The position numbers and the translations under genes are program-made. From Chloroflexota bacterium (GTDB lineage Bacteria > Chloroflexota > Dehalococcoidia > Lucifugimonadales > UBA2985): DNA of 64,000 bases. The first letter of the stretch is position 1, and every line of letters begins with the position of its first letter. Below are positions 590 through 34,223 of the stretch, piece by piece. Location: contig JAPPHY010000002.1 in NCBI GenBank assembly GCA_028877205.1, positions 13,994 through 77,993 of the forward strand, given 5' to 3'. The notes under the pieces are model-generated. The model did not search any database. It saw only the letters and a program-made list of their open reading frames with translations, and was not told the DNA's origin.

Positions 590-994
590 CTACGTCTCGT
601 GTCGTACCAGGACGGCCCGGGCCAGGCGTGAGAGGTCCCGGTCGAAGGTGTAGAGCGGGTCGGCTCCTGCTCTTTTGGCAGCCGCGAGAATCATCAGGTC
701 GGAGAAGTCCGCCGCTCCCTGACGGTATCGATACGCAGCCACGGCCACGTCATCGGCGTCCTCCACAGCCAGGCTGTCCGAGGCCGTCAGGTCCATTAGC
801 GCGGCGGCCACGGTGACTCGGTTGAAGCCATAGCTTCTCTCCAGAACCCAAGCCAGCTCCACCATCACCTCACGACAGACGAATCCCGGGTCTTCGGGCG
901 TCAACGCCGCAACCAGCGCACGGGCAGCCTCCGCCTGTGCCGCGTCGTCACCTACGAGGTAGCGTACAAGCACGTTGGTATCGAGCGCGGTCAA
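590..994 (-). CDS. vapC: PIN-domain toxin, VapC family
   Basis: N-terminus ALDTNVLVRYL with a conserved acidic residue and a later FDRD motif. It overlaps the upstream antitoxin gene by 4 nt. Confidence 0.8.
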   Translation of the reverse strand: MTALDTNVLVRYLVGDDAAQAEAARALVAALTPEDPGFVCREVMVELAWVLERSYGFNRVTVAAALMDLTASDSLAVEDADDVAVAAYRYRQGAADFSDLMILAAAKRAGADPLYTFDRDLSRLARAVLVRHET

Positions 995-1224
995 CCTTTC
1001 GATGCCCCCTCAGCGATGGCTCGCTCCATCTCTTCCAGGGTCACCACGGGGCCGTCATATCTCAGGCTGCGAAACAGCAAGCTCGTGGGGCGCACCGGCA
1101 TGATCAGCGCCCCCTCGTCCAGCACCACGTAGCGCACCTTGTCACCAGGCTTGAGTGCAAGAGAGTCCCTTATCGCCTTGGGCAGGGTGGTCTGGCCCTT
1201 CATGGTTATGGTTGAATCCAACAT
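991..1224 (-). CDS. vapB: AbrB/MazE/SpoVT-type antitoxin (VapB-like)
   Basis: KGQTTLPKAIRDSLALKPGDKV swapped-hairpin motif. 77 aa, translationally coupled to the PIN gene. Confidence 0.75.
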   Translation of the reverse strand: MLDSTITMKGQTTLPKAIRDSLALKPGDKVRYVVLDEGALIMPVRPTSLLFRSLRYDGPVVTLEEMERAIAEGASKG

Positions 1225-1425
1225 AAGGTTTGCCCCTCAGGCCATCGACATAGTTGATTGCCTTACACTATAAGGCAAAGTAATGCCGAATACAACTGAG
1301 TATGACAGTTGGTGTGAACGTGACGACGATTCCGGGCTGGACTCTGGCGAGTTGCAGATGCGGCTGGTAAACTAGCCTCGTCGAAGAAACAAGCCCCGCT
1401 CAATCCACGCTGCCAGGGAGGCCAG

Positions 1426-2463
1426 ATGAAGGCTGTATTCATTGAGGAACAGGGAGACGTCGACAAGCTGATCTACGGCGACAGGCCGGACCCCTCGGCG
1501 GGCCACGGCGAGGTGGTGATTCGCGTGCGAGCCAGCGCGCTCAACCACCTCGACCTCGGCGTGCGATCGGGCCGAGGGCGTGGCCCCGGCTCGCTGCCGC
1601 GAATCCTCGGCTGCGACATGGCGGGCGAGGTGCATGAGCTGGGCGCAGGCGTGACCGGCCTGGCGGTCGGCGACAGGGTGCTGGTGGACAACCGCATCAA
1701 GTGCGACGCCTGCACTCCTTGTCTCCAGGGCACGGACCAGTCCTGCGAGCGGCAGCTCAGGATTGGCGTGGACGTCGACGGAGGCCACGCCGAGCTTTGC
1801 AGCGTCCCGGCCGTCAACGTCCACCGGTTTCGCGACTCCATGACGTTCGAGGAGGCGGCCGCCATCCCGCTCGCCTTTCACGCGGCGTGGCACTGCCTGA
1901 TGGTGCGCGCCGAGCTCAAGCCCTGGGAGACGATCCTGGTGCAGGCCGGAGGCAGCGGCGTGGGAAGCGCGGCCATTCAGATCGCCAAGCGCATCGGCGC
2001 AAGGGTCATCACAACCGCAGGGTCGGACGAGAAGCTGGCTGTGGCCCACGAGCAGGGCGCTGACGAGGGCATCAACTACCGCACCACGCCGGAGTTCAGC
2101 CGGGCTGTAATGGATCTGACGGGCGGCGCGGGCGTCGATGCAGTGTTGGACGTGGTGGGCGCGGCGGTATGGAGAGAGAACCTCCTCAGCCTCAGACCCT
2201 TTGGACGGCTGGTGATCACGGGCACCACGTCCGGGTCGCAGTCGGACATGGACCTGTCGCTGCTGCAGGGGCGTCCGCTTACACTGATGGGCAGCGGCGG
2301 CCGCACGCGCCGCTCGTTTGCCGAGATGATGAGCGTGGTCAACCGCGGCGAGCTTCGAGGCGTAGTCGGGCGCGTGTTCGAGCTTCAGGAGGTGGGCGAG
2401 GCGCACCGCACGATGGAGAGCCGCGACTTCTACGGGAAGCTAGTGGTGCGTAGTCCGGGCTGA
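1426..2463 (+). CDS. zinc-type alcohol dehydrogenase / NADPH:quinone oxidoreductase (MDR superfamily)
   Basis: GroES-like N-terminus (GEVVIRVRASALNHLD), nucleotide-binding VQAGGSGVGSAAIQIAK, 345 aa. Confidence 0.85.
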   Translation: MKAVFIEEQGDVDKLIYGDRPDPSAGHGEVVIRVRASALNHLDLGVRSGRGRGPGSLPRILGCDMAGEVHELGAGVTGLAVGDRVLVDNRIKCDACTPCLQGTDQSCERQLRIGVDVDGGHAELCSVPAVNVHRFRDSMTFEEAAAIPLAFHAAWHCLMVRAELKPWETILVQAGGSGVGSAAIQIAKRIGARVITTAGSDEKLAVAHEQGADEGINYRTTPEFSRAVMDLTGGAGVDAVLDVVGAAVWRENLLSLRPFGRLVITGTTSGSQSDMDLSLLQGRPLTLMGSGGRTRRSFAEMMSVVNRGELRGVVGRVFELQEVGEAHRTMESRDFYGKLVVRSPG

Positions 2464-2478
2464 CGGTCGGTCAGGCGG

Positions 2479-2664
2479 CTAGAAACGCAGTGCCACGCCG
2501 ACAGCCAGCACTAGGACCAGGAGTAGCGCTGAGCATACGCCCACGGGCGCGGGCATGAAGGCGCCGCGCGGGTGCCTGTGGGCCAGGTGCAGACGGCGGT
2601 TACGACGGGGCTCGATGGCCACGGTCTCCCGCACTACTCCTTCGGGTTCGCGTACACTTGTCAT
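2479..2664 (-). CDS. small tail-anchored membrane protein, hypothetical
   Basis: 61-aa ORF with one C-terminal hydrophobic helix (CSALLLVLVLAVGVAL). No homology recognised. Confidence 0.2.
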   Translation of the reverse strand: MTSVREPEGVVRETVAIEPRRNRRLHLAHRHPRGAFMPAPVGVCSALLLVLVLAVGVALRF

Positions 2665-2761
2665 CGCCTATGCTCTCGTGCTTCACTGGATGCTGACTTC
2701 ACGTTAACCATATCGGTTAGTGCGCACTTTGTCAAGGAGTTGCACGCGCATTCGCAGGCGG

Positions 2762-2774
2762 TTAGCGTGGCTAA
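2762..2774. promoter_or_regulatory. palindrome TTAGC-GTG-GCTAA upstream of ferritin (possible iron-box-like operator)
   Basis: 5-3-5 inverted repeat overlapping the -35 region of a TATATT -10 element at 2792..2797. Its half-sites resemble DtxR/IdeR TTAGG/CCTAA boxes. Confidence 0.25.
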
Positions 2775-2859
2775 GAGGTAGCCTCTCATGCTATATTGGG
2801 GTAACGCTGCGGGTCTTGCCCGACGCGAGCCAACAAACCCGCATTTGGAGGTTCTCCCG

Positions 2860-3357
2860 ATGATCAGCACTACCCTTCAGGACGCGTTCAACAAGCAGAT
2901 TGGCAACGAGCTGAGCGCGGCCCACCTGTACCTGTCCATGGCGGCATTCTTCGAGTCGCTGAGCCTGCCTGGCTTCGCCAAGTGGATGCGGCTCCAGCAC
3001 CAGGAAGAGACTGCGCATGCCTTGAAGATCTTCGACTTCCTGGTCGACAGGAACGGACGGGTGAGCCTCCAGGCCATCAATGCCCCGGCATCAGAGTTTG
3101 AGTCTGTTGAGGCGGCGGTTGCCCTGGCTCTGGATCACGAGCGCCGAGTGACGGCCGACATCTACGCTCTGCACGAGCTTGCACAGAAGGAGCGTGACTA
3201 TGCCTCCCACGTGCTGCTCGAGTGGTTTGCCGCGGAGCAGGTGGAGGAGGAGAAGACACTGGAGGAGGTTGTCGACCACGTCCGCATGGTCAAGGACGAT
3301 GGGGCAGGCCTGCTGATTCTGGACCAGCGGCTAGGTAGCCGGACCACCGCGGAGTAG
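2860..3357 (+). CDS. ftn: ferritin (non-heme, Ftn-type)
   Basis: ORF 2788..3357. Preferred ATG at 2860 follows GGAG. Di-iron ligand pattern in ELSAAHLYLSMA and LQHQEETAHALKIFDF. Confidence 0.85.
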   Translation: MISTTLQDAFNKQIGNELSAAHLYLSMAAFFESLSLPGFAKWMRLQHQEETAHALKIFDFLVDRNGRVSLQAINAPASEFESVEAAVALALDHERRVTADIYALHELAQKERDYASHVLLEWFAAEQVEEEKTLEEVVDHVRMVKDDGAGLLILDQRLGSRTTAE

Positions 3358-5914: not shown

Positions 5915-8933
<3,019 letters not shown>

Positions 8934-9818: not shown

Positions 9819-9996
9819 CGCGCCCTTTCGGTAGTATCACTAGTACCCCACCTGGGATGGCCCCTGCGTCCGCGAGACAGGCGGGCGGTGGAGGGCAGGT
9901 AGGTTTAGTTCCCTGCCCGCCAACGCACGTGTCTCCGCCCGCCATCCGTGTGCTGCGATGCTCCGAAAACAGCCTTCCGGCGCACCGCCTTCGGTG

Positions 9997-22969: not shown

Positions 22970-23036
22970 GACTATTTCCTCTCTCTGTGCAATATGTCTC
23001 AGGCTGCCGTAAGTCTAACACACATCCGCCATCGTC

Positions 23037-24308
23037 TCAAACGCGCCGGCCGCCAGTCCTCTCCTCCCTCGTGCCCGGCTGACGCGTCACGGACTCCCGT
23101 GCGAACAGCAGGAACGCGAGTCCCACGACCCCCACAACTGCACCGTTCCCCACAAGCGCGGTGGTGGCTCCGTACGTGTCGGCGGCGAGGCCCATGAGCG
23201 GCGGCGCGATGAGCAGCGCCAGGTCGCCGAATGAGCGCGCCGCGCCCTGCGCTATGCTCTGGCGCGCCCGCGGGCTTATGTCTGCCACGTACGCCACCGG
23301 AGTCGGCCCCTGGATGCCGTTGCCTAGCCCGAACAGTGTCATGCCCACCGCGTACAGCATCAGCGCTGGGCTTGCTCCAAGCACCATCATGGCGATGGAA
23401 ACTATCAGCAGCCCGGGCACGATGGTCTTCTTGCGCCCGAACCGGTCGGAAACGGAGCCGGAGAAGGGCAGCAGGAGAAAGGCCAGGACGGGCGGGATGG
23501 TGAAGATTGCGCCTATCTGCCCCGGCGAAAGACCCAGCTCATCCGAGCCCTTCAGCGGCAGTAGCGTGAACTGCGCCCCGCCGCGCGTGAAGAAAATGGC
23601 GGCCAACACCAGCCCAACCAGGATGAAGTCGCGGGACTTCAGGAAGGAGTACCTTGACCATCGCCCCTCCTGAGTCACCGGGCCGTCCTGCCTTCCTACC
23701 TGTGGCCTTCCGTCTGCGTCGTCCGACGACGGCCTGGTCTCCGGCACGCGGAAGAACGCCCAGATACCGCTGACCAGCGACACCGCGCCGACGGCGAAGA
23801 ACGGGCCTCGCAGCCCGAATATCTCCGCAATCAGGCCGCCCATCGAGGGGCCCAGCGTGATGCCAAGCGCAAAGCTGCCCTGGTAGACGCTCATCAGCCG
23901 CCCGCGGTTGGCTGGCGTACTAATGTCGCCAATGAAGATGACGGCCCCGGTGATGAAGGCGGCGGAGCCGACCCCCGCAATGAACCTGTACACCATCAGC
24001 GGCGCGAGCGAGTCCGCGGTGCCCGCCAGGGCGTTGCCCGCCGCCGCGATCAGCGGCCCGCCTACCAGCACGGAGCGCCGTCCGAATCGCTCGGAGAGAA
24101 CCGCGGTGGGCATGTTGGTAAGGAACCGCGCCAACCCGAATACGCTGATGACCAGGCCGACCGTGGCAAGGGATACGCCCAGGCTGTCCGCGTAGAGGGG
24201 CAGGATGGGCGCCACCATCCCCTGGCCGGTGGTGAGCAGTGTGGTGGACACCGCCAGCAGCAGCACCGTGGGGTGCTCGCGCAGGACGGGGACGATGCCT
24301 AGTCGCAA
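23037..24308 (-). CDS. MFS transporter
   Basis: 12-TM pattern with a GRR/GRK loop motif (SERFGRRSVL, SDRFGRKKT). Confidence 0.85.
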   Translation of the reverse strand: MRLGIVPVLREHPTVLLLAVSTTLLTTGQGMVAPILPLYADSLGVSLATVGLVISVFGLARFLTNMPTAVLSERFGRRSVLVGGPLIAAAGNALAGTADSLAPLMVYRFIAGVGSAAFITGAVIFIGDISTPANRGRLMSVYQGSFALGITLGPSMGGLIAEIFGLRGPFFAVGAVSLVSGIWAFFRVPETRPSSDDADGRPQVGRQDGPVTQEGRWSRYSFLKSRDFILVGLVLAAIFFTRGGAQFTLLPLKGSDELGLSPGQIGAIFTIPPVLAFLLLPFSGSVSDRFGRKKTIVPGLLIVSIAMMVLGASPALMLYAVGMTLFGLGNGIQGPTPVAYVADISPRARQSIAQGAARSFGDLALLIAPPLMGLAADTYGATTALVGNGAVVGVVGLAFLLFARESVTRQPGTREERTGGRRV

Positions 24309-24332
24309 AGCGGCGATTCCTGGAGGGCCGCG

Positions 24333-25121
24333 CTATCCCTGCGTGACGGCGCGCTCGGCGGGCAATGGCCGGCCCGGGTTGAACGTGTGCAGGCGGAACC
24401 CCTCGGCGTACTTGAGGCCGTGCTTCTCCGCCAGCTCCGACACCCTGCCGCGGATGCGCTCCTCAAGCTCCTCCGGGTTGCCTATCTGGCTGCGATGCGC
24501 CTTTAGCGCCTCGATGCGCACGTCGATTACGTCAGAGATGTCGACCACCAGGTCCGGGTCCGTCGGTGTGGAGGTGTAGATCTCGAGCACCTTGTGCGGC
24601 CCGAAGCCCTCGGCCTCATGCTCCGGGAAGTGCAGCCTGTCCCTGGCGAACGGGTACACCGCGTCGAAGGTCGACTGGCCGGCCATCCGATGGTCGCGGT
24701 GATTGTGGCGGTTGCGGCTGTAGGGGTCCTGGCAGAAGATGACGTCCGGCTTGAACCGGCGTATCTCGCGCACGATCTTCCCGATGACCTCGCGCGTCGA
24801 CTCAAGCTCGCCGTCGCCGTAGCCCAGGAACGTAACGTCCGTGGTGCCGATGATGGCTGACGCGTTGCGCTGCTCCTCCTGCCGGATGGTGCCCAGCCGC
24901 TCGGAGGTCATGTCCGGGTCGCTGGTGCCCTTGTCGCCGTTGGTGCACAGCACGTAGGCTAGCTCCATGCCCTCCCGCGTCATCTTGGCGAGCGTACCCG
25001 CAAATCCGAACTCGGCGTCGTCTGGATGCGCAACCACCACCATGGCGCGCTTGTGCTTGTCCCACGGCATTTCGGGGGCGGAGCTTTGGGAGGCGTCGGT
25101 CGTCAAGTAGGGACCTCTCAA
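24333..25121 (-). CDS. PIG-L/LmbE family N-acetylglucosaminyl deacetylase
   Basis: VVAHPDDAEFG zinc-binding motif and HRDH. The start may be a downstream ATG. Confidence 0.8.
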   Translation of the reverse strand: MRGPYLTTDASQSSAPEMPWDKHKRAMVVVAHPDDAEFGFAGTLAKMTREGMELAYVLCTNGDKGTSDPDMTSERLGTIRQEEQRNASAIIGTTDVTFLGYGDGELESTREVIGKIVREIRRFKPDVIFCQDPYSRNRHNHRDHRMAGQSTFDAVYPFARDRLHFPEHEAEGFGPHKVLEIYTSTPTDPDLVVDISDVIDVRIEALKAHRSQIGNPEELEERIRGRVSELAEKHGLKYAEGFRLHTFNPGRPLPAERAVTQG

Positions 25122-25190
25122 TCCACGGGCTGTGGCGCGCGCCGCAGCGCCGTTTGGTATTAAGCTTCGTAGAGTTTACCATATCGCCGC

Positions 25191-26162
25191 ATGGTGTATC
25201 ATGGAGCCACTTCCAGAGCCGCGGAGGCGTCGGTTTTGAGCACTTCACACACCTTCTCCGGCAACCCCCTGGACAGGGGCGACCGGGAGCGCCGCGATGA
25301 CGAGTGGATAGCCCGCCGGAGCGGCGACGCTGCAAGTCGCTTCCTGCCCATGCGTGACCTGAACGTGCCCGTTTCCGAGGCCGACGGCGCAGGCCTTGTG
25401 TGGCTCAGCGGCGAAGAGAGGGAGAGGCTGGAATTAACGGCCCAACCGCTGTTCCTTGGCCTGCTGAACGGCACGGCGCACTTCGTGGTGGACGTGTCAA
25501 AAGCGGACGGAGCGGCCCGAGAGCTCGACCAGGACGGCCGCTTCAGGTACGTCGACGCACGCTCAGCAACGGAGCTGCTGGACGCGGCATCGTGCGGCAT
25601 AGTGGCGCAGGCGCGGGCGCAGGTGGACTGGCACGCCCGCAACGGCTTCTGCCCCCAGTGCGGCTCGACAACGACGATGGCCAGGGGCGGGCAGACCCGC
25701 CACTGCCCAGGCTGTGGCGCCATACACTACCCGCGCACCGACCCGGTTGTAATCACGGCCGTGCACAGCGGCGACTGGTGCCTGCTGGGGCAGTCGCGCG
25801 GCCGCGGCACGGGTTCCAACCGCTACTCGGCGCTGGCAGGATTCGTAGACCAGGGCGAGTCGATTGAGGAGGCGGTCGCGCGGGAGATCATGGAGGAGTC
25901 GGGCATTGCGGTGAAGAATGTGCGGTATCACTCGTCGCAGCCGTGGCCGTTCCCGTCCTCGCTGATGATAGGCTGCCTGGCGGAAGCGGCCACCACCGAG
26001 ATCTCCGCAGACGATGAGGAGATGTCGGACGTTCGCTGGTTTCACCGCGACGTGGTGGTGAGTGCGCTGGACGGAGGGAGCAACGAGCTGACGCTGCCCG
26101 CGCCGCTCGCGATTGCACACCACATCATCAGGGCTTGGGCGCTGCCGCATTCCCAGGACTGA
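25191..26162 (+). CDS. nudC: NAD+ diphosphatase (NADH pyrophosphatase)
   Basis: Zinc ribbon CPQCGSTTTMARGGQTRHCPGCG. Nudix box GFVDQGESIEEAVAREIMEESGI. SQPWPFPSS motif. Confidence 0.85.
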   Translation: MVYHGATSRAAEASVLSTSHTFSGNPLDRGDRERRDDEWIARRSGDAASRFLPMRDLNVPVSEADGAGLVWLSGEERERLELTAQPLFLGLLNGTAHFVVDVSKADGAARELDQDGRFRYVDARSATELLDAASCGIVAQARAQVDWHARNGFCPQCGSTTTMARGGQTRHCPGCGAIHYPRTDPVVITAVHSGDWCLLGQSRGRGTGSNRYSALAGFVDQGESIEEAVAREIMEESGIAVKNVRYHSSQPWPFPSSLMIGCLAEAATTEISADDEEMSDVRWFHRDVVVSALDGGSNELTLPAPLAIAHHIIRAWALPHSQD

Positions 26163-26211
26163 GCGTACGGATAGCCCTAGTCCAGCCTGGTAGACCGGCT
26201 AGGGGGTGTCT

Positions 26212-26423
26212 CTACAGCGGCAGGTGCACGGCGCGGCCGGTGCGGGCGCTGCGGGCCACGGCCTCCGTGAACTCCATGTACGCCACGCCGTCCTCGAAGG
26301 TGGTGAGTCGGACGGGCTCCAGCCCACGGATGGCGTTCACGAACTCCTCCTCCACGCGCCACGACTGCTGCTTCTCGACGGGCACTTCGATCTCCGCCAG
26401 CCCGTCGTCGCCGCGGCGGCCGC
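26212..26423 (-). pseudogene. duplicated 3' fragment of the Gfo/Idh/MocA oxidoreductase gene
   Basis: 212 nt matching 28874..29085 with 3 mismatches. It encodes only the last ~70 aa. The rest of ORF 26212..26559 is unrelated sequence. Confidence 0.85.
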
Positions 26424-26532
26424 ATAGCCGTATGGGGCTGGCGGCCTTGCGGATGACGCACGGAAGCCCGCCACTCCTGGATTCAGTTCCTGAACACAAC
26501 AAACGGCCCTGGGCCGCCTCTTGGCCGCCCGA

Positions 26533-26560
26533 TTGCCGACTCTCTGAAATGTCGTACAAT
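26533..26560 (+). promoter_or_regulatory. putative recQ promoter (TTGCCG-16 nt-TACAAT)
   Basis: Hexamers read in the unique DNA between the duplicated fragment and the recQ ATG. Confidence 0.4.
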
Positions 26561-26616
26561 GAGCCACGGGTTGTTCATTCTCGGTGTCGAGGCTACTCCT
26601 CGGTCGCAGAATATCC

Positions 26617-28818
26617 ATGCGAGATTCCAATAGTCTGCACGCAGTCCTCAAGTCACGATTTGGCTACGACAGCTTTCTCGGGCACCAGGAGGAGATTGTC
26701 GGCAACGTGCTGGCCGGTGGTGACAGCCTCGTGCTCATGCCCACCGGCGGCGGCAAGTCCCTGTGCTTTCAGTTGCCCGCCCTGGTGCTGGGCGGCCTCA
26801 CCCTCGTTATTTCCCCGCTGATATCCCTCATGAAGGACCAGGTGGACGCCCTGAACCTCAACGGCATCGACGCGCGGTATATCAACGGCACTATGTCCGA
26901 CCTTGAAGTCGAACGTGTGCGGTCCCAAGTCCTGGCTGGGCGGATCAGGCTCCTGTACGTAGCTCCGGAGCGGCTAGCGCATCCGGAGTTTCGCCGCTTT
27001 CTCTCCGCTCTGGATCTGAGCCTCATCGCTATAGACGAGGCGCACTGCATCTCGGAGTGGGGCCATGAGTTCCGCCCTGACTATCGCAACCTGCGGCAGC
27101 TGCGAGACCACTTCCCATCGACACCTGTTATAGCACTGACGGCCACCGCGACAGAGCGTGTCCGCCGGGACGTCATCGTTCAGCTGGGACTGCAGGAAGG
27201 CAGGTTGTTCCTGTCCAGCTTCGACCGTCCCAACCTAACCTACACGGTGCAGGCCAAGGATAGGGACTGGACGCAGCTGACCCGCCTGCTCGAAGAGAGG
27301 CGCGGGCAGTCGAGCATCGTTTACTGCTTTTCGCGGCAGGAGACTGAGGACCTGGCCCGGTTCCTCAACGACCGCGGCTTGCAGGCACGCCCGTATCACG
27401 CCGGGCTGGACGCCGAAACTCGCCGTCGCAACCAGGAGGACTTCATTCGAGACAGGCTCTCCGTAATCGTGGCGACCATAGCATTTGGCATGGGCATCGA
27501 CAAGCCGGACGTCCGGCTCGTGGTGCACTACGGCCTGCCAAGGTCTGTGGAGGGCTACTACCAGGAGACGGGGCGCGCCGGCAGGGACGGCCTGCCCAGC
27601 GATTGCGTGCTGTTCTTCTCCTACGCCGACAAGGCCAGACAGGAGTACTTCATCAACCGGATAGAGGACGCATCGGAGCAGCGTAACGCTCGGGAGAAGC
27701 TGGATCGGATGGTGGAATTCGCCCAGCTTCCCACCTGCCGCCGCCGATTCATGCTGGAGTACTTTGGGGAGCAGCGCTTGGAGGCCAATTGCGGCAGCTG
27801 TGACGTGTGCCTCGAGTCGAGAGGGAGCTTCGACGCCACAGAGGTGACACAGAAGATACTGTCGGCTGTGATTCGCACCGGCGAACGCTTTGGTGTGCAC
27901 CACATCATCCAGGTGTTGACCGGAAGCCGCGATAAGCGTGTCTTGGGGCTGGGGCACGACAGACTGAGCGTGTATGGCATTGCGAAGGACGCCGGTCGGG
28001 CGCAGCTGCGCGAGATAATCGGGCAGCTCCAGTTTGTGGGGCTGCTGAAGCGGGCGGAGGGTGAGTTCCCCACTCTGCTGGTTTCGGATGCAGGGCGGGC
28101 GTTCCTGCAAGAGCGACGAACGCTGAAGCTGCCCCGGCCGCAGTCGCCCAACGCAGGCAGTCGCCGGTCGGCTACGGCTGACTACGACGAGGGCCTGTTC
28201 GAGGAGCTGCGGGCTGTGCGACGGAGGCTGGCCGGGGACCGCAACGTGCCCGCATACGTCGTGTTCGGTGACGCGTCGCTGCGGCACATGGCAGCGGCTA
28301 TCCCTCGCTGCGTTGCGGACTTCCTGGATATTCACGGGGTGGGCAGTACGAAGGCGGAGCAGTACAGCGATGCGTTTCTGGAGGCGATACAACGGTACGC
28401 AACCGAGAACGGCGTGCAACCCAGGAAAGGCGCCTCTCCGGTGCAACGAGACTCGGCGGACCAGTCTGAAGCCGGACGGCCCTCGGAGCCGCGGTGCCTC
28501 CCGGGAGCCACCTGCGATGAGACCATGCGCCTCATGTTGCAGGGACTGTCCGTCAGTGAGATAGCGGCGCACAGGCGACTATCTGAGACTACGGTTATCG
28601 GTCACCTGGAACGCCTGGCAAACGCGGGGACGGCCCTGGAGCTTGAGCGCTTGCTTCCTGACGCGGAGAGGCTGAGCCGGATGGAGGAGGCGTTTGAGGC
28701 CTGCGGCAGTGCGTACCTCAGGCCGGTTCGAGAGTATCTCGGCGAAGGGTTCACCTACGAAGAACTCCGACTGGCCCGCATTCACCTGCGCCAGTCTGGA
28801 CTGAAGGACTCACCCTGA
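26617..28818 (+). CDS. recQ: ATP-dependent DNA helicase RecQ with C-terminal HTH extension
   Basis: Walker A MPTGGGKSLCFQ. DEAH box IAIDEAHCISEWGHEFRPDY. Zinc cluster CRRR...CGSCDVC. HRDC segment. C-terminal LQGLSVSEIAAHRRLSETTVIGHLERL HTH. Confidence 0.9.
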   Translation: MRDSNSLHAVLKSRFGYDSFLGHQEEIVGNVLAGGDSLVLMPTGGGKSLCFQLPALVLGGLTLVISPLISLMKDQVDALNLNGIDARYINGTMSDLEVERVRSQVLAGRIRLLYVAPERLAHPEFRRFLSALDLSLIAIDEAHCISEWGHEFRPDYRNLRQLRDHFPSTPVIALTATATERVRRDVIVQLGLQEGRLFLSSFDRPNLTYTVQAKDRDWTQLTRLLEERRGQSSIVYCFSRQETEDLARFLNDRGLQARPYHAGLDAETRRRNQEDFIRDRLSVIVATIAFGMGIDKPDVRLVVHYGLPRSVEGYYQETGRAGRDGLPSDCVLFFSYADKARQEYFINRIEDASEQRNAREKLDRMVEFAQLPTCRRRFMLEYFGEQRLEANCGSCDVCLESRGSFDATEVTQKILSAVIRTGERFGVHHIIQVLTGSRDKRVLGLGHDRLSVYGIAKDAGRAQLREIIGQLQFVGLLKRAEGEFPTLLVSDAGRAFLQERRTLKLPRPQSPNAGSRRSATADYDEGLFEELRAVRRRLAGDRNVPAYVVFGDASLRHMAAAIPRCVADFLDIHGVGSTKAEQYSDAFLEAIQRYATENGVQPRKGASPVQRDSADQSEAGRPSEPRCLPGATCDETMRLMLQGLSVSEIAAHRRLSETTVIGHLERLANAGTALELERLLPDAERLSRMEEAFEACGSAYLRPVREYLGEGFTYEELRLARIHLRQSGLKDSP

Positions 28819-28873
28819 GCTGGTACGGGAGCCAGGCCCACCACGAGCGGGAGCGGCGCAGGGCAGCCCGCCC

Positions 28874-29917
28874 CTACAGCGGCAGGTGCACGGCGCGGCC
28901 GGTGCGGGCGCTGCGGGTCACGGCCTCCGTGAACTCCATGTACGCCACGCCGTCCTCAAAGGTGGTGAGTCGGACAGGCTCCAGCCCACGGATGGCGTTC
29001 ACGAACTCCTCCTCCACGCGCCACGACTGCTGCTTCTCGACGGGCACTTCGATCTCCGCCAGCCCGTCGTCGCCGCGGCGGCCGCCGAACAGCTGCATCG
29101 CTCCTGTTTCCAGGTGCAGAGTACCCCCCGTGCCGAATAGCCACACGTCGGCGGAGGGTGCAAGGCCGGTGACGGCGCTGAATGTCATGTGGGCCTGCGC
29201 ACCGCCGTTAATACGTGCGAGTACGTCCACGTGGTCCGGTATGGTGACCGGCCGCAGCAGGCCGCCGGTGTCAACGCGCTGGGGCACCGTCACGCTGGTC
29301 ATGGCTAGGACCTCCGTGGCCGGGCCTATCCACCGCATCATCGCCTCGTACCACACGCCCAGGAACAGCACGTTGTAGCCGCTCACCGCGCGGTCGTGCC
29401 TCCACTGGAGCGGCCCGCCGAACTCCGGGAAACCGCTGCCTGTGACCCGCATCTCGACCGAGGTGAGCGCGCCCAGGTAGCCAGATGAGAGAAGCTCGCG
29501 GATGGTGGTGTCGACTTTCAGCGTGAACGGCGACGGCACCACCTGCGCGACGAGGTCGGGATGGCGGCGCGATGCGTTGAGCATTGCCTTGGCCTCAGCC
29601 GCGTCCATTGCCATGCGCGCCTCCGTGAGGACGTGCTTGCCGGCGTCCAGCGCCGCGAGCGTGATGGGGCAGTGCATGTAAGGCCAGGTGCCGATGCAGA
29701 CCGCGTCTATGTCGGGGGACTGCACCAGCTGCTGCCAGTCGTCGTACACGCGGGGGATTTCGAACTCGTCTGCCACGCGCTGCCCGGACTCGCGGCTGCG
29801 ATTGGCCACGCCTACCACGTCGACTCCTTCAAGCGCCTGGAAGCCCGGTATGTGGCGTGCCCGGCTGTTGGCGCCGGCCCCCACGATGCCCACGCGTATG
29901 TTCTGACTGCTGGTCAT
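28874..29917 (-). CDS. Gfo/Idh/MocA family oxidoreductase
   Basis: N-terminal Rossmann IRVGIVGAGANSRARHIPGF. 347 aa. Confidence 0.85.
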   Translation of the reverse strand: MTSSQNIRVGIVGAGANSRARHIPGFQALEGVDVVGVANRSRESGQRVADEFEIPRVYDDWQQLVQSPDIDAVCIGTWPYMHCPITLAALDAGKHVLTEARMAMDAAEAKAMLNASRRHPDLVAQVVPSPFTLKVDTTIRELLSSGYLGALTSVEMRVTGSGFPEFGGPLQWRHDRAVSGYNVLFLGVWYEAMMRWIGPATEVLAMTSVTVPQRVDTGGLLRPVTIPDHVDVLARINGGAQAHMTFSAVTGLAPSADVWLFGTGGTLHLETGAMQLFGGRRGDDGLAEIEVPVEKQQSWRVEEEFVNAIRGLEPVRLTTFEDGVAYMEFTEAVTRSARTGRAVHLPL

Positions 29918-30023
29918 GCCACCTCCGATCCGCGAATGCCGCGGCTGCTTTCAACAGGAGTGGGTACGCCGCGGCGTACCCACTCCTTCGCCTTCTGCGA
30001 TTGTCCCATTGAAGGGAGGCGTC

Positions 30024-30686
30024 CTAGCTCGTCGGGTCCTTGACCTTCCTCAGGTAGGGCGTCACGGTCTCCCACCCGTCTGGGAACAACTCCTGGGCCG
30101 CCTCGTTGTTGATGGACGGCAGGATGATCACGTCCTCGCCCTTCTCCCAGTTGGCGGGCGTGGCAACGCGGTGGTTGGCCGTGATCTGGCAGGAGTCGAG
30201 CACCCTGAGGAGCTCGTCGAAGTTGCGGCCGGAGCTCATGGGGTACGTGAGGTTCATCTTGATTCGCTTGTCCGGGCCGACAAGGAACACGGATCGAACG
30301 GTCGCGTTGTCCGCGGCCGTCCTGCCCTCGGACGAATCGCCGCTCTCCGCTGGCAGCATATCGTAGAGCTTGGCGACGCTCAGGTTCTCGTCGGCGATGA
30401 TGGGGAAGTTGAGCTCTGTGCCCGCGAGCTGTTCGATGTCAGCCGCCCACCGCTTGTGGTCGTCCACCTTGTCCACGCTCAGTCCGATGACCTTGCAGGA
30501 ACGCTTCTGGAACTCGCTGTTGATCTTCGCCACCTCGCTGAGCTCAGTGGCGCAGACCGGCGTGAAGTCCTTGGGGTGCGAGAAGAGCATGGCCCAGCCG
30601 TCGCCCATCCACTCGTGGAAGTTGACCGTACCCTCGCTGGTTTCCGCCGTGAAATCCGGTGCCTCGTCATTGATTCGTAGAGACAT
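30024..30686 (-). CDS. 1-Cys peroxiredoxin (Prx6-like)
   Basis: MSLRINDEAPDF...FSHPKDFTPVCATEL. The ATG at 30686 follows GGAGGAG. The upstream extension in ORF 30024..30905 is not protein-like. Confidence 0.9.
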   Translation of the reverse strand: MSLRINDEAPDFTAETSEGTVNFHEWMGDGWAMLFSHPKDFTPVCATELSEVAKINSEFQKRSCKVIGLSVDKVDDHKRWAADIEQLAGTELNFPIIADENLSVAKLYDMLPAESGDSSEGRTAADNATVRSVFLVGPDKRIKMNLTYPMSSGRNFDELLRVLDSCQITANHRVATPANWEKGEDVIILPSINNEAAQELFPDGWETVTPYLRKVKDPTS

Positions 30687-30925
30687 ATCTAGCTCCTCCT
30701 CTACCGGGTTGTCGTGGGGATTCATTCGCCAACGGCGCTGTTGCCTTCGAGAGCGAAGCAGGATCGTGTTGCCACGATGGTCGTGACTAAATCTTACAAC
30801 ATTTCCTTGCTCGTGCCAACGCTGCGCTATCGACTTGTGCCCCGTCGCGCGGTAGAATCTATCAGGCGCGATAGGGGCTCCGCTGAGCAGCGCGGGCCCC
30901 GACACTCAATCAAGAGGGGGAGACC

Positions 30926-32248
30926 ATGCCAACCGAAAATGCACCGCCATCCATGTACAGAGCCAAGGAGGGACTTGGTGTGTGGGAGCACAGGGGGAAG
31001 GTGGTCGCCGTTGGCATTGGCGTTTCGCCCACGGCCCGTCGCTGGGACGAGACCACCGACACCAGCCTGGGGGCCTGGAGCATCCTCGCGCTCCAGAGGG
31101 CAATGGAGGACGCGGGCGTCTCGCCTGACCAGGTCGATGGCCTGGTGATGGCGCAGGACACCTCCACCGGCTCGCCGTGGCCGACTGACAAGCCCATCCC
31201 GCAGGACTTCCTGAATACCTACAAGTCCACCGACAACCCGCTCGACGGCATCGCGAGGCTCAGCTCCGAGTGGATACTCCAGAACATGCCGGAGCTTAGC
31301 AACGTGGACTTCACCATGTACGGACCCGGCTGCATGTCCAACGCGCTGGTGGTGGGTGCGCAGGCCGTGGGTGAAGGCTTGACGGACGTCTGCCTTGTCC
31401 TCAAGGGCTGGCACAACTTCGGCGGCCGGTACTATGTGGGGCAGGGCGCAGCGGCGGGCGACACCATAGGCGGCGGCGGCAAGTGGACCGGCCTGTGGGG
31501 CACGGTGGCCTGCTACAACACCGCCATGATATTCGAGTCCTACTGCCGCAAGTACGGCAAGAACCACGACATGATGGCGCCTTTCGTGGTCAACGAAAAG
31601 CGCAACGGACTGCTTTACCCTGAGGGCTTCTGGGCGCAGCACCGGCCCGAGCCGCTGTCGGTCGAGGACTACCTGGCGGCCCGCTGGATCGCCAAGCCTG
31701 CAAACCTCTTCGACAACGACCTGCCCATCTGCGTTTCCGGCGCATTCCTCCTCACCACGGAGGAGCGGGCCAGGGACATGAAGCAGAAGCCGGTCTACAT
31801 CCTGAACCACACCAGGACAGCTCCGGAGCAGCGGAGCGTGGTGCCTACCCTGGAAGAGTGGCAAGCGGCCGCCGATAGCACTGGACGCAAGCTCTACGAG
31901 GGGTCGGGCCTGACCCCCAGCGACCTGTCGTTCGAGAACATGTACGACGGCTTTACGCTCTTCCACCAGTTCCACCTGGAGGGGCTGCGGTTCGCGGGTG
32001 TTCAGCCTGGCGAGGCACTGGACTTCTACCAGACGGACATCTCGATCGAGGGGCCGAACCCCGCTTCGCCCAGCGGCGGCAACGCCGGGGCGGGACGCAC
32101 CCGTTTCTGGCTGCACATGGACTCCGTGCTGCAGATACAGGGCAGGGCGGGCGCTCGGCAGATACACAGGCCCGCGGAGGCGGGCGTATCCGGCGCGTTC
32201 TTCCCGGACAACAACTACTCCGTGGTCTGGGCAGCCAGGGCCGACTAG
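30926..32248 (+). CDS. thiolase-like (SCP-x/lipid-transfer type) protein
   Basis: 440 aa. The GVSPDQVDGLVMA and C-terminal GGNAGAG segments are typical of thiolase-fold proteins. Assignment is by resemblance only. Confidence 0.6.
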   Translation: MPTENAPPSMYRAKEGLGVWEHRGKVVAVGIGVSPTARRWDETTDTSLGAWSILALQRAMEDAGVSPDQVDGLVMAQDTSTGSPWPTDKPIPQDFLNTYKSTDNPLDGIARLSSEWILQNMPELSNVDFTMYGPGCMSNALVVGAQAVGEGLTDVCLVLKGWHNFGGRYYVGQGAAAGDTIGGGGKWTGLWGTVACYNTAMIFESYCRKYGKNHDMMAPFVVNEKRNGLLYPEGFWAQHRPEPLSVEDYLAARWIAKPANLFDNDLPICVSGAFLLTTEERARDMKQKPVYILNHTRTAPEQRSVVPTLEEWQAAADSTGRKLYEGSGLTPSDLSFENMYDGFTLFHQFHLEGLRFAGVQPGEALDFYQTDISIEGPNPASPSGGNAGAGRTRFWLHMDSVLQIQGRAGARQIHRPAEAGVSGAFFPDNNYSVVWAARAD

Positions 32249-32284
32249 TCAGGACCGGAAACTATCGGGGCGAGGGGCGCGACG

Positions 32285-32494
32285 TCAGCCGATGTAGCAG
32301 CCCCTCCGCCCCCCGAATCTCCTCTCCACTCGCCCATCGGGGTAAACGACGATGGGCACGGCGTCGCCCAGCTTGCGCGCTTCGTCCATAGCCTCCTGGC
32401 TGAGGTCCGCGCGCCGCTCCTCATACTCCATGCCTTCCGCATCCCACTGCTCAAGCAGCCTTGCGCATGCGGGGCAGCCCCTGATGCTGTACAC
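32285..32494 (-). CDS. glutaredoxin-family small redox protein
   Basis: 69 aa with an N-terminal YSIRGCPAC CxxC motif and a VPIVVYPDG strand. Confidence 0.65.
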   Translation of the reverse strand: MYSIRGCPACARLLEQWDAEGMEYEERRADLSQEAMDEARKLGDAVPIVVYPDGRVERRFGGRRGCYIG

Positions 32495-32552
32495 GATTGG
32501 AAGCGAGGCTATGTGTGTTACCTCCGGTCCTGCGCTGCGGCTCGCAACCCCA

Positions 32553-34223
32553 CTACTGTAGCTGCCTGAGCCGCGGGCTCGCGAGCAGTATCACGAACGC
32601 CACAAGGATCAGCATCCCGGCCATGATGCCGAGTGCTACAGGCGCGCCCAGCCGCTCGGCGACCAGAGTGACGGGCAGCACGCCGGCAGGCATTATGCCC
32701 ATGTTCAGCCCGAAGATGCTCATCACGCGGCCGCGGTACTCCTGATTGGTGTACTCCATCATGAGGCTGCTGGTGAGGGTCATCCGTGACGCCTGGATCA
32801 TACCGACCACCACTAGGATCGCGATGCCCGTGGCGAACATAGGCACGAAGTAGGAAGTGGCGGCAAAGCTCAGGAGCACGAGGCCGGAGAGGATTCCACT
32901 GACCGCCAGTGCTAGTCCCCTGCGCGAGACCTTCCCAATGAAGGCTATCATCAGGGTGCCGCCCAGCGCGCCCAGGCCCATCGCGCTCATCAGCACGCCC
33001 AAGCCGTCCGCCCCCACCTCGAATACGTCCTTGGCAAAAATGGGCAGAATAAAACGAATGGGCATGGCGAAGATGATGGTAGCGAACGAGAGAAGTAGCA
33101 GGACAAGGATGACGCGGTTGTCGAACACGTACCTGAAGCCATCACGGATGTCGCCGAAGACCGTGGTCTGGCGACCCCTTGGGGGCACCTCAACCTTGGG
33201 CAGCCTGGTTGTGAAGAGAACGGCCAGCACGTACATACCGGCGATTACGTAGTACACCGACTCAACGCCAATCTCCGCGATGAGCGTCCCGGCCATCACC
33301 GGCACCGCCATCGTCGTAAGGCTCATAACCATCGCATTCAGGGCTACGGCGTTCGTGAGCCTGTCCATTCCCACAAGCTGAGGGGTGATGGCCTGGCGCG
33401 CCGGCATCACGAGCGGCATCACGCTGCCCTGCATCGCCGACGCCGCGAGCAGGTGATACCAGGTGATAGTGCCCGTGGTGATGGACACGGCGATGAACAG
33501 GGCTACTCCCATCGAGACCATCTGGCTCGCCTGGATGACACGCTTCTTGTCCATCCGGTCGGCCACCACGCCGCCGAACAGCGCCAGCGTTACCGCCGGC
33601 ACCGCGGCGGCCGCCACCACAATGCCGAGCAGCGACTCCCTGCCGGTCAGCTCGAACACGTAGTAGCCCCCGGTCAGCATGAGCATCTGCATGGCGCCCA
33701 TCTGAAGCATGAAGCCGAGCCAAAGGTTGCGATATCCCGGTACGCTCAGGGAGTCGAAGGTGCGCTTGAGCGCGGCGGTTGAGGTGAAAGAGGAGAGCGT
33801 GAGTCCCTGCGGTCTGGGCATGCCGCCCGGATGACCGCCCGGAGGGCCGCCGTTGCCGGCTGAGCCGGCGCTTGCCTGAGCGGTTGCTGCGCCGGAGCGG
33901 CTGCCCACGGCAACAGGCTCGCCCTCCTCCGCACGCGAGGCACTCCAGCTTCCGCTGCCCATCGAGCCGAACTGCACCTGCCCGGAGGCCTGGTCGCCTT
34001 CCACCGTGCCAGTGAAGGTCAGGTTCATCGCGCCCATAGGACCGGACATGGATGCGCTGAACTCCACCTCGCTGCCGTTTGCGCGGCCGCTCACGCTCGC
34101 AGTGCCCATGCTGGTAGTGAGCGACCCTTCGAGGCTGCCGGTGTTCTCCCTGATAGAGAGCGACGCGGGTCGCGTCCCCATGGGGGATTCCATCTGCAGC
34201 TGCCAGTTGCCCTCGAACGCCAT
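32553..34223 (-). CDS. MFS transporter with ~130-aa N-terminal soluble extension
   Basis: The C-terminal ~420 aa is 12-TM MFS-like. The N-terminus is a Gly/Ser/Thr-rich non-membrane domain followed by a Gly/Pro linker. Confidence 0.8.
   Translation of the reverse strand: MAFEGNWQLQMESPMGTRPASLSIRENTGSLEGSLTTSMGTASVSGRANGSEVEFSASMSGPMGAMNLTFTGTVEGDQASGQVQFGSMGSGSWSASRAEEGEPVAVGSRSGAATAQASAGSAGNGGPPGGHPGGMPRPQGLTLSSFTSTAALKRTFDSLSVPGYRNLWLGFMLQMGAMQMLMLTGGYYVFELTGRESLLGIVVAAAAVPAVTLALFGGVVADRMDKKRVIQASQMVSMGVALFIAVSITTGTITWYHLLAASAMQGSVMPLVMPARQAITPQLVGMDRLTNAVALNAMVMSLTTMAVPVMAGTLIAEIGVESVYYVIAGMYVLAVLFTTRLPKVEVPPRGRQTTVFGDIRDGFRYVFDNRVILVLLLLSFATIIFAMPIRFILPIFAKDVFEVGADGLGVLMSAMGLGALGGTLMIAFIGKVSRRGLALAVSGILSGLVLLSFAATSYFVPMFATGIAILVVVGMIQASRMTLTSSLMMEYTNQEYRGRVMSIFGLNMGIMPAGVLPVTLVAERLGAPVALGIMAGMLILVAFVILLASPRLRQLQ

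Follow-up and report, generated by a model that had tools for sequence, protein, structure and literature searches.

A duplicated oxidoreductase gene end around recQ in a Chloroflexota genome suggests an old rearrangement scar later reshaped by gene conversion

In the genome of an uncultured Chloroflexota bacterium (GCA_028877205.1, labeled G000), a recQ gene separates two copies of the 3' end of a Gfo/Idh/MocA-family oxidoreductase gene, one belonging to the intact gene and the other lying beside nudC. The history that we favor, with moderate confidence, is that of an old rearrangement scar: an event would have set recQ between nudC and the oxidoreductase gene, doubling the end of the latter, and gene conversion would later have acted on the two copies. 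The scar would predate the divergence of G000 and the closest relatives sampled. As its origin, an 'insertion with long target duplication' is most likely, and the main alternative is an in-situ tandem duplication followed by a deletion. Relatives are labeled G002-G008, G030, L0xx, L125, and L126, and all positions refer to the 64-kb stretch of DNA that was analyzed (the window).

The oxidoreductase repeat and the DNA it encloses

The features of the locus are listed below, with the source of each assignment in parentheses.

25191..26162, + strand: nudC, NADH pyrophosphatase-type Nudix hydrolase (Pfam NUDIX, NUDIX-like, Zn_ribbon_NUD)
26163..26211, no strand: i1, 49-bp spacer from the nudC stop to the remnant stop codon (sequence)
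26212..26423, - strand: left copy, high-identity part, last 70 oxidoreductase codons plus stop, 209/212 identical (alignment, BLAST, tblastn)
26424..26446, - strand: left copy, tail diverged beyond a 3-bp deletion, allele class of G002/L043 (alignment)
26212..26559, - strand: chimeric 115-aa ORF, remnant plus spacer (ORF list)
26447..26546, no strand: J, ~100-bp spacer (alignment)
26533..26560, + strand: promoter-like site TTGCCG-16-TACAAT upstream of recQ (sigma-70-like site search)
26617..28818, + strand: recQ, 733 aa from the ATG at 26617, with an in-frame GTG upstream at 26584 (Pfam)
28575..28576, no strand: IS insertion site in recQ of L041/L042, intact in G000 (comparison of assemblies)
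28819..28873, no strand: i3, 55-bp spacer from the recQ stop to the oxidoreductase stop (sequence)
28874..29085, - strand: right copy, functional oxidoreductase 3' end (repeat search, MAFFT, Pfam)
28874..29917, - strand: Gfo/Idh/MocA-family oxidoreductase (GFO_IDH_MocA), 347 aa, intact

Both the repeat search and MAFFT recovered 26212-26423 and 28874-29085 as a gapless direct repeat of 212 nt with three mismatches, as a preliminary description of this DNA had reported. The repeat begins exactly at the oxidoreductase stop codon (CTA on the + strand; the gene is 28874..29917(-)). One mismatch (26256 C / 28918 T) corresponds to Ala/Thr in the oxidoreductase frame, and the other two (26296 G / 28958 A and 26314 G / 28976 A) are synonymous. 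BLAST found only two copies in the 2.0-Mb assembly (E 2e-107 and 2e-103), and a genome-wide self-comparison ranked this as the most identical mid-range direct repeat of the genome. The distinction first drawn between an orphan 3' fragment on the left and the genuine gene end on the right also stands. The oxidoreductase gene has orthologs in 41/41 relatives searched, and the left copy, which tblastn aligns at 98.6% over oxidoreductase residues 279-347, is a dead remnant of its 3' end.

This remnant exceeds 212 bp. The segment 26424-26446, past a 3-bp deletion, is oxidoreductase-derived too, giving a left copy of ~235 bp that spans codons ~270-347. The tail agrees with the allele of G002 at 18/23 positions (P ~5e-7 by chance) and with the right copy of G000 itself at only 12/23; over 21 positions, the corresponding counts are 16/21 and 15/21 for G002 and L043 (P ~4e-6) and 10/21 for the G000 right copy. 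The chimeric 115-aa ORF noted earlier at 26212..26559(-) is present in the ORF list and is annotated as a hypothetical protein in public assemblies. It matched no Pfam family, its database 'homologs' are C-terminal pieces of full oxidoreductase genes, and it is probably not a gene.

Unique DNA of 2450 bp separates the repeat copies and holds a complete recQ and one promoter-like site, which is the sole sigma-70-like site within 26000-29200 and whose -10 part is kept in G002, G003, and L043. The ORFs and Pfam matches of the insert include no integrase or transposase, in agreement with the initial picture of recQ accompanied only by its own promoter-like element. No terminal inverted repeats were found at the insert ends and no tRNA at the locus; judged from its content, nothing within the 2.45 kb is predicted to be able to move itself. 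Transposon or IS insertion was considered and rejected, given the lack of inverted repeats and a duplication of 212-235 bp rather than 2-15 bp; the preliminary description had also called the repeats too long for a transposase target duplication.

The left neighbor, nudC, is convergent with the remnant, and collinearity with relatives reaches ~26146. The spacer i1 is weakly similar to i3 (global P ~0.007, local P ~0.19) and to the nudC-oxidoreductase spacer of G004, which is itself weakly similar to both i1 and i3; i3 is homologous to the corresponding spacer of G002/G003 (z = 3.8). A terminator-like hairpin lies on the - strand of spacer J (26519-26501), and J had no match among 41 relatives.

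Domain architecture and distribution of RecQ

The cargo is predicted to be a complete bacterial RecQ-family DNA helicase. Its product carries DEAD, Helicase_C, RecQ_Zn_bind, RQC, HRDC, and C-terminal HTH_40 domains, all above the Pfam cut-offs and in an uninterrupted frame, and the nearest solved structures are those of bacterial RecQ (4tmu, 1oyw, and 4q47; E 1e-151 to 1e-138). The 733-aa form is the one on public record.

In the genomes compared, recQ is dispensable and patchy in distribution. It was not found in G004, G005, or G007, is a pseudogene in G008, and is split by an IS (DDE_Tnp_1/DUF772 transposase) in L041 and L042, which are otherwise identical assemblies; in G000 itself, contig C21 encodes another full RecQ. 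Across the order, the gene is likewise patchy and shows signs of transfer between lineages, the RecQ of G030, from another family, being 76% identical at the protein level. At this locus, recQ is orthologous in G000, G002, G003, and L043, and the 83% amino acid identity between G000 and G002/G003 matches the divergence of the flanks. Copies at other loci in relatives have neither flanking repeats nor an oxidoreductase fragment; hence, there is no sign of the recQ cassette moving as a unit.

Gene neighborhoods of the junction across relatives

The preliminary description had asked whether nudC lies directly next to the oxidoreductase gene in related genomes. It does so in G004 and G005. L044 and L125 come close to this arrangement, with small PaREP1 genes alone, and no recQ, between nudC and an intact oxidoreductase gene. 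Since nudC adjoins the oxidoreductase gene in relatives, recQ is an insertion/deletion polymorphism at exactly this junction. G002 and G003 have the order nudC-recQ-oxidoreductase with no remnant, and L043 has remnant-spacer-recQ-oxidoreductase, the same layout as G000. G000 aligns collinearly with the recQ-less order of G004/G005 over 25901-26438 and with the recQ-containing order of G002/G003 over 26547-29300.

The left-flank tree, (L125,(L043,(G000,L044))), has 99-100% support and the right flank is compatible with it, making the recQ-less L044 the sister lineage of G000 and L043 the outgroup to both. The contigs of L043 and L044 come from noisy long reads (coverage of 3x or similar), and some of their differences may be sequencing errors. 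The L043 remnant is decayed: compared with the functional copy of L043, it is 85% identical by BLAST over 182 nt and 90% identical across the initial 174 alignment columns, with a deletion of 9 bp and an end near position 174. Next comes a spacer homologous to G000 26505-26546, the right part of J, which is missing in G002 and G003.

An assembly artefact, raised as a possibility at the outset, was excluded by comparison with other assemblies. The junction-spanning ORF and the whole layout recur at 99.99-100% identity in the independent assemblies ERZ23495471 and ERZ23495468, and the left junction with most of recQ is identical in GCA_034423275.1 and ERZ23495530. G000 is a 22-contig metagenome-assembled genome from a population with strain variation, such as the IS in recQ, and both facts would suit a chimeric contig that merges recQ-plus with recQ-less strains of one metagenome. 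Such a chimera is nevertheless exceedingly improbable, as the left junction requires the unique sequence 26424-26546, found in neither simple haplotype, the layout is repeated across the assemblies above, and L043, a related long-read contig, is built in the same way.

The repeats would let host homologous recombination delete recQ precisely and leave the oxidoreductase gene intact. Deletion of this kind probably explains recQ-less relatives such as L044, whose intact oxidoreductase gene is compatible with it. Parsimony gives three events whether the recQ-less relatives are taken as excision products, independent deletions, or the ancestral state, and the hybrid oxidoreductase allele (Thr to Ala) expected from excision did not occur in the protein collection.

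Comparable footprints were also observed elsewhere. At the same oxidoreductase end, G006 carries an independent footprint of the same kind, with G007 and G008 as empty sites; its insert holds a lipoprotein gene with 94.8% DNA identity to a different genus, and the 301-bp duplication includes a whole tRNA gene. On contig C2, a GmrSD_N + HEPN defense pair lies behind a duplicated HAD-hydrolase start, and within the window, an 88-bp repeat surrounds an HNH islet at 9918/12541.

Evidence for an old scar and later gene conversion

The outgroup L043 shares the layout of G000 and has a decayed remnant; the scar would therefore be older than G000. The preliminary description had reasoned that relatives with identical architecture and diverged repeats would indicate an ancient, fixed arrangement. 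L043 is such a relative, and the arrangement is indeed old, but it is not fixed. The scars of G000 and L043 would be of single origin, judging from their layout and ~45 bp of common spacer, although no substitution common to the two remnants proves it.

The near-identity of the copies in G000 is best explained by gene conversion acting on this older duplication. We infer this from three G000-specific substitutions that occur in both copies (repeat positions 115, 175, and 187) and are absent from 10 relatives' sequences, and from the collapse of identity at the 3-bp indel, where mismatch density jumps from 3/212 to 11/23 (Fisher P = 1.8e-10). The remnant would have been overwritten from, or exchanged with, the functional copy over the whole pairable stretch, from the stop codon, beyond which the flanking spacers differ, to the 3-bp indel, past which it would retain the older allele. 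Less probably, a very recent re-duplication in G000 happened to abut the older tail.

Concerted evolution of a gene and a nearby pseudogene fragment through gene conversion is a known process. The recQ locus resembles it in having near-identity only where the copies can pair, ending abruptly at non-homology and at an indel, and lineage-specific substitutions in both copies; unlike the general case, conversion here is deduced from one genome.

Alternative explanations for the origin of the locus

If the G000 lineage had itself recently undergone Campbell-type or homology-facilitated illegitimate integration, DNA from a recQ-bearing conspecific would have entered a recQ-less recipient through a single crossover, or a homologous plus an illegitimate join, in the last ~235 bp, the 1.4% difference between the copies being donor-recipient divergence. 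The structure of the product is an exact fit, the sister lineage L044 is without recQ, and the gene has moved between lineages, as the G030 copy (76% protein identity) suggests. A single crossover would also give a remnant tail of the recQ-bearing class and a functional tail of the recQ-less class, and the remnant tail does belong to the allele class of the recQ-bearing G002 and L043, the functional tail matching the recQ-less L044 and L126. ComEC and DprA are present in G000, but also in most control genomes, and are hence little informative. The layout of L043, with its decayed remnant and common spacer, would however demand two independent insertions in the same place. All three G000-specific substitutions occur in both copies, which would require a donor almost identical across 212 bp but 48% different in the adjoining 23 bp, and the divergence of recQ from G002/G003 (83% aa) matches that of the flanks. 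We consider this account unlikely, and the Campbell-type integration proposed at first is not borne out as a recent event, given the L043 scar, the shared substitutions, and the indel-bounded identity. An in-situ history without foreign DNA accommodates the orthology of recQ in G000, G002, G003, and L043, and its flank-like divergence: recQ would have been ancestrally resident as in G002/G003, a tandem copy of recQ, spacer, and ~235 bp of oxidoreductase end would have arisen, the first recQ would have been deleted, and gene conversion would have followed. In its favor, i1 and i3 are weakly similar and both start TGAGC..GTACGG, the last 19 bp before the L043 remnant align with G000 i3 inside one BLAST match, and the G004 nudC-oxidoreductase spacer is slightly nearer i3 than i1. 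These spacer similarities are statistically weak (local P ~0.19), however, and two steps are needed. The ~100-bp J must also be ancestral, whereas G002/G003 have only ~25 bp there and 41 relatives gave no match, and the independent G006 case, with clearly foreign DNA at the same gene end, favors insertion as the local mode. We regard duplication-deletion as doubtful.

Elements of the e14 / phage 21 type integrate at the icd 3' end in E. coli and leave behind an icdC pseudo-end; they carry an integrase gene and enter at a defined core site. The recQ locus has the same form, with an orphan 3'-end copy on one side and the intact, functional gene on the other, and a whole tRNA gene, which is a classic target of integrases, lies within the G006 repeat. 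A decayed integrase-bearing island or prophage that supplied a replacement gene end, and of which only recQ is left, is nonetheless very unlikely. No integrase, excisionase, or phage gene, and no tyrosine or serine recombinase, was found in the insert or its flanks in the genomes examined; the inner ends differ (~235 bp in G000, ~174 bp in L043, and 105 bp of the gene in G006), leaving no common core site; and the cargo, a recQ with orthologs in other species, is an ordinary chromosomal gene.

Relationship to insertion with long target duplication

Among known classes, this one, reportedly recognized by Nobusato et al. in 2000, comes closest, and the recQ locus is most likely a further instance of it. 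The surveyed cases lack mobility genes and have repeats of 46 to >400 bp (Furuta, Abe and Kobayashi 2010, NAR 38:2428, PMC2853133). We applied the criteria of that survey: repeats >30 bp, an empty site in a relative, no mobile element, an insert <20 kb, and a repeat that is not dispersed. The recQ locus has direct repeats of 212 bp that are 98.6% identical (~235 bp if the diverged tail is counted), with two copies in the genome, and an insert of 2450 bp holding only recQ. Empty sites, ancestral or secondary, occur in G004 and G005, and with PaREP1 genes in L044 and L125. The cargo is RecQ rather than the restriction-modification genes originally surveyed, though the mechanism class may still apply.

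The locus thus shares with this class a small gene unit between long, variable direct repeats (212-235 bp here) that are unique in the genome and single-copy in an insert-less relative, without integrase or transposase, and that permit later loss or amplification. It differs in its helicase cargo, in a host, an uncultured Chloroflexota, that lies outside the described cases, and in the age of the scar, whose copies evolved in concert in one lineage and whose remnant decayed in another; here, moreover, recQ may be either foreign or rearranged in place. On the scar reading that we favor, the event would have produced the order nudC, 49-bp spacer, ~235-bp dead remnant, ~100-bp spacer, promoter, recQ, 55-bp spacer, and complete oxidoreductase gene, possibly through a one-ended homologous plus illegitimate join or through Campbell-type integration of a circularized fragment.

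The first of these routes recalls homology-facilitated illegitimate recombination, which de Vries and Wackernagel are said to have described in 2002. In this process, described for transformable bacteria (PMC3240628), a homologous and an illegitimate join add foreign DNA beside an anchor gene by host functions only, as could have happened here. Unlike the recQ locus, the known cases come from experiments and mostly lack long duplications.

Implications for gene flux in the genus

The value of the locus is illustrative rather than fundamental, and knowledge of RecQ and of mobile elements is unchanged by it. For annotation, the public 115-aa "hypothetical protein" is a pseudogene fragment. The locus also cautions against dating insertions by repeat identity alone: at 98.6%, the repeats look recent, yet the scar would be older than the species, gene conversion having apparently rejuvenated a dead gene fragment. 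It offers a natural example of a gene added, kept, or removed at a fixed junction by host recombination alone, with close relatives preserving all states: empty site, fresh-looking scar, decayed scar, and scar removed.

More tentatively, and as a possibility that we would not yet call likely, the genus may habitually gain single genes without a recombinase, next to gene ends and with target duplications of 80-300 bp. Four footprints fit such a habit, namely recQ, the G006 lipoprotein gene, the C2 defense pair, and the HNH islet. The repeats would then serve as handles for precise loss, and gene conversion may keep some of them usable. If this is true, insertion with long target duplication would count among the general modes of gene flux, extending well past restriction-modification systems and past the culturable, transformable bacteria in which it was described.

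Direct repeats around recQ and their validation

A repeat search of the window recovered a 212-nt direct repeat, 26212-26423 versus 28874-29085, whose two copies are 99% identical. The preliminary description had already noted this repeat around recQ; alignment and genome-wide searches confirm and extend that observation, and Pfam matches bear out the accompanying gene calls:

23037-24308, minus strand: MFS transporter
24333-25121, minus strand: PIG-L deacetylase
25191-26162, plus strand: nudC
26584/26617-28818, plus strand: RecQ, complete
28874-29917, minus strand: Gfo/Idh/MocA oxidoreductase
30024-30905, minus strand: peroxiredoxin
30926-32248, plus strand: thiolase-like protein

RecQ is on record with an ATG at 26617 and 733 aa; among solved structures, bacterial RecQ proteins are closest to it (E down to 1e-151). 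The promoter-like element ascribed to it (TTGCCG-16-TACAAT, 26533-26560) is the only such site within 26000-29200. The repeat begins with CTA, the stop codon of the minus-strand oxidoreductase gene, and ends at the site of a 3-bp deletion in the left copy. To its left, pairwise alignment found no similarity between the flanks of the two copies. One mismatch (26256/28918) encodes Ala in the left copy and Thr in the oxidoreductase gene, while the other two (26296/28958 and 26314/28976) are synonymous. The 212-bp extent holds for the repeat, but the oxidoreductase remnant on the left is longer, as 26424-26446, beyond the deletion, still reads as oxidoreductase. The source assembly (G000; 2.0 Mb, 22 contigs, 96% complete) contains only these two copies, which form the most identical pair at kilobase spacing among all its internal repeats.

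The insert encodes nothing able to move itself; searches found no inverted repeats at its ends and no tRNA within 8 kb of the locus. The GC content of recQ (0.60-0.65) lies slightly under that of the flanks (0.65-0.69), and this comparison gave no sign of foreign origin. Elsewhere in the window, an 88-bp direct repeat (9918-10005/12541-12628; 74% identical) brackets a module in front of an HNH gene, a footprint in the style of the recQ case.

Over 23000-32559, both copies included, two ENA assemblies from sister samples reproduce the window at 100% and 99.99% identity, so the layout is no assembly artefact. The 115-aa ORF spanning the left junction also occurs in several public assemblies. A chimera of recQ-bearing and recQ-less haplotypes was rejected, since the left junction requires the unique segment 26424-26546, which such a chimera would lack. 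In two further sister-sample assemblies that are otherwise 100% identical (GCA_034423275.1 and ERZ23495530), identity to the window runs up to 28575; there, recQ is split at 28575/28576 by an IS encoding a DDE_Tnp_1/DUF772 transposase, cutting off the HTH_40 domain. Of this IS, the source assembly has just 53 bp, where contig C12 ends.

The nudC-oxidoreductase junction in relatives

The oxidoreductase is present in all eight other species of the genus (G001-G008) and in another 32 genomes from the family and order. We retrieved 12-kb regions around it and mapped the window genes onto them. G002 and G003 have the row MFS, PIG-L, nudC, recQ, oxidoreductase, peroxiredoxin and thiolase, without the remnant. 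G004 and G005 have the identical row minus recQ, with nudC directly adjoining the oxidoreductase, the arrangement that the preliminary description had proposed looking for. The gene has other neighbours in G001, G006, G007 and G008. Nucleotide comparison showed collinearity with the recQ-less G004/G005 for 25901-26438 of the window, and with the recQ-bearing G002/G003 for 26547-29300. The ~100 bp between (26447-26546) match neither arrangement, and have no match in the 41 relatives' genomes or elsewhere in G000.

Exact-protein look-ups identified closer relatives, of which L043 and L044 are low-coverage long-read contigs with frameshifts. L044 (93% nt identity) lacks recQ, and a small PaREP1-family gene lies there between nudC and an intact oxidoreductase; L125 has two PaREP1 genes at the junction and no recQ. 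In L043 (89-92% nt), the order is nudC, PaREP1, a remnant of the oxidoreductase 3' end, recQ, then the oxidoreductase itself. The 127-aa PaREP1-family gene, of a family named after archaeal proteins, occupies the nudC-oxidoreductase gap in L043 (~6400-6783), L044, L125 and a further close-relative contig, L126, in one or two copies, and is absent from G000 and G002-G005. A maximum-likelihood tree of the left flank (2.9 kb) resolved (L125,(L043,(G000,L044))) and ((G002,G003),(G004,G005)), with 98-100% support at all forks; the right-flank tree likewise placed G000, L043 and L044 in one clade.

Across the genus and family, the cargo at the convergent junction behind the oxidoreductase differs: recQ, PaREP1 genes (one or two), a P450 fusion (G001), or TPP-enzyme and ADH genes (G011). 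In G001, the fusion is a 687-aa GPP34-cytochrome P450 protein (L024, 5850-7913) behind the oxidoreductase 3' end, with solute-binding protein and DNA methylase genes beyond it.

Distribution and decay of recQ

In this order, recQ is patchy and repeatedly decaying. It is absent from G004, G005 and G007, and in G001 lies elsewhere, away from the oxidoreductase junction. The window recQ shares 76% (aa) and 81% (nt) identity with that of G030, from another family (C1:1255152-1257362), and just 65% with that of G006, of the same genus. The G030 gene carries an in-frame TGA, and the G008 gene (C1:341746-343934), with in-frame TAG and TGA codons, looks like a pseudogene. G000 has a second complete RecQ on contig C21 (10.9 kb; 593-3055, minus strand; 821 aa, two HRDC, HTH_40), 56% identical to the first. 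Loss of recQ seems to be tolerated, given its absence in G004, G005 and G007, the G008 pseudogene, the IS disruption in sister populations and this second RecQ. C21 also holds a ~1735-aa open frame with a RecQ-like helicase core (about 6413-7423, minus strand); G020, G028 and G032 have giant frames of a similar kind.

We discarded the notion of recQ as a travelling cassette with its own ends: the loci in G001, G006, G013, G020, G028, G030 and G032 share the coding region only, and none of the seven showed bracketing repeats or oxidoreductase pieces.

Comparable insertions and repeats

The oxidoreductase gene end also received an insert in G006 (L029, C1:1706000-1718000), where 2453 bp (~1710300-1712750) are flanked by 301-bp direct repeats of 96% identity. 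Each repeat comprises what by eye looks like a complete tRNA gene (possibly tRNA-Gln), a spacer and the final 105 bp of the oxidoreductase gene, and G007 and G008 (95% nt) provide clean empty sites. The insert encodes one lipoprotein-like protein, with a lipobox-containing signal peptide, a Pro/Thr-rich linker and no Pfam family. Because 2067 bp of it share 94.8% identity with a G020 gene, from a different genus, its comparison with that genome indicates a recent inter-genus transfer; the G020 oxidoreductase is just 70% identical, and the G020 flanks of the shared gene have no homology to the G006 target. The G006 case is a genuine recombinase-free insertion, in which foreign DNA came in with a long target duplication.

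Within G000, the beginning of a HAD-hydrolase gene is present twice on contig C2, as a 204-bp direct repeat (90%; 28139-28342/31723-31926, equivalent to L127 2140-2343/5724-5927). Between the copies lies a defence-like cassette for three proteins: GmrSD_N (DUF262), RiboL-PSP HEPN and tRNA_anti-like OB-fold. No empty site was found for it, the relatives sharing only the HAD gene. Two other candidates were rejected as parallels: the 132-bp repeats on C14 (87%; 258891-259020/261152-261280) flank a full GmrSD (Type IV restriction-like) gene and have a third, inverted copy on C11, so that they look like a dispersed intergenic element, not a target duplication, and the C16 repeat is a paralogue pair.

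In a JGI metagenome scan with the oxidoreductase as query, no match exceeded 76% aa identity. A duplicated 3' end was absent from all 80 loci matched there, none was found outside the genus, and the scan gave no evidence of a general hotspot role for this gene end beyond it. A search for orphan oxidoreductase ends with the 115-aa ORF gave three short matches on long contigs, none genuine: all proved to be parts of full-length genes broken by frameshifts in noisy long-read assemblies. The remaining matches, mostly on short contigs, were presumed to be partial genes.

A probably old scar with near-identical copies

In L043, remnant and functional copy are 85% identical (BLAST, 182 nt; 90% over the first 174 aligned columns); the remnant bears a 9-bp deletion and ends at about position 174 of the gene end. 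There follow ~45 bp homologous to G000 26505-26546, a sequence that G002/G003 lack, so that L043 looks like the G000 layout (nudC, remnant, spacer, recQ, oxidoreductase; hereafter the scar) minus ~126 bp. L043 and G000 thus look like carriers of one and the same scar. No substitution common to both remnants was found. The same place and the same spacer make two independent insertions much less likely than a single origin, which the layout would place before L043 split from G000 and L044. The preliminary description had held that a relative with the same architecture and diverged repeats would mark an ancient fixed arrangement; L043, with its decayed remnant, is in part such a relative, marking the arrangement as old, not as fixed.

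The near-identity of the G000 copies is best attributed to gene conversion, the scar itself being old. Mismatch density jumps from 3/212 in the repeat to 11/23 in the tail 26424-26446 (Fisher P = 1.8e-10). The tail agrees with the G002 allele at 18/23 positions (chance ~5e-7) and with the G000 functional copy at 12/23; in the multiple alignment, it matches G002 at 16/21, the L043 functional copy at 15/21 and the G000 functional copy at 10/21. The tail is apparently older and of another allele class than the functional copy. Three substitutions, at repeat positions 115, 175 and 187, are common to the two G000 copies and seen in 0/10 relatives' sequences; comparable lineages have 3-11 private substitutions each over the same 212 bp. 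These common changes suggest that the copies last exchanged information after most G000-specific divergence, i.e. after the L044 split. We infer an old remnant whose pairable part was probably overwritten recently by conversion; the tract would be bounded by non-homologous spacers (26163-26211 after nudC versus 28819-28873 after recQ) on one side and the indel on the other. A recent insertion from a conspecific donor fails to account for these features: the donor would need 98.6% identity over 212 bp, then ~50% difference over the next 23.

Origin of the scar

Three routes could have led to the scar, and all yield the same product: insertion of recQ DNA plus a replacement gene end, joined homologously on one side and illegitimately on the other; integration of a circularised fragment in the Campbell manner; or local tandem duplication of recQ and the gene end, after which the first recQ was lost. 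We favour insertion because recQ is patchy in the order with signs of transfer, because 26447-26546 has no local source, and because G006 acquired clearly foreign DNA likewise at this gene end. Local duplication-deletion, which we regard as rather unlikely, draws on the spacers: those after nudC and after recQ resemble each other with weak significance, and the G004 nudC-oxidoreductase spacer resembles both. These similarities, compared to polarise insertion versus deletion, are weak, and parsimony on the tree requires three events whether recQ was ancestral or gained. Were the scar ancestral to the G000-G005 group, the recQ-less genomes would be products of recombination between the copies, and G002/G003 would merely have deleted the 385-bp remnant. 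No excision product was seen among proteins on record, where the predicted hybrid oxidoreductase allele had no exact match. No Ku is present; ComEC and DprA are, but being widespread in control genomes they are uninformative.

Of the mobility envisaged in the preliminary description, the insertion/deletion polymorphism, the excisable layout and the lack of a transposase stand. Its recent timing does not, the scar being shared with L043.

Relation to known systems

[quoted passage not shown] The recQ scar agrees with this class on these four counts and appears to fit it, although its cargo is RecQ, not a restriction-modification unit. It resembles e14/phage 21 integration into icd in form only, having neither an integrase nor a common core site, and is not a transposon footprint. 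The locus provides a tidy illustration and hints that gene flux by this route is common in the genus.
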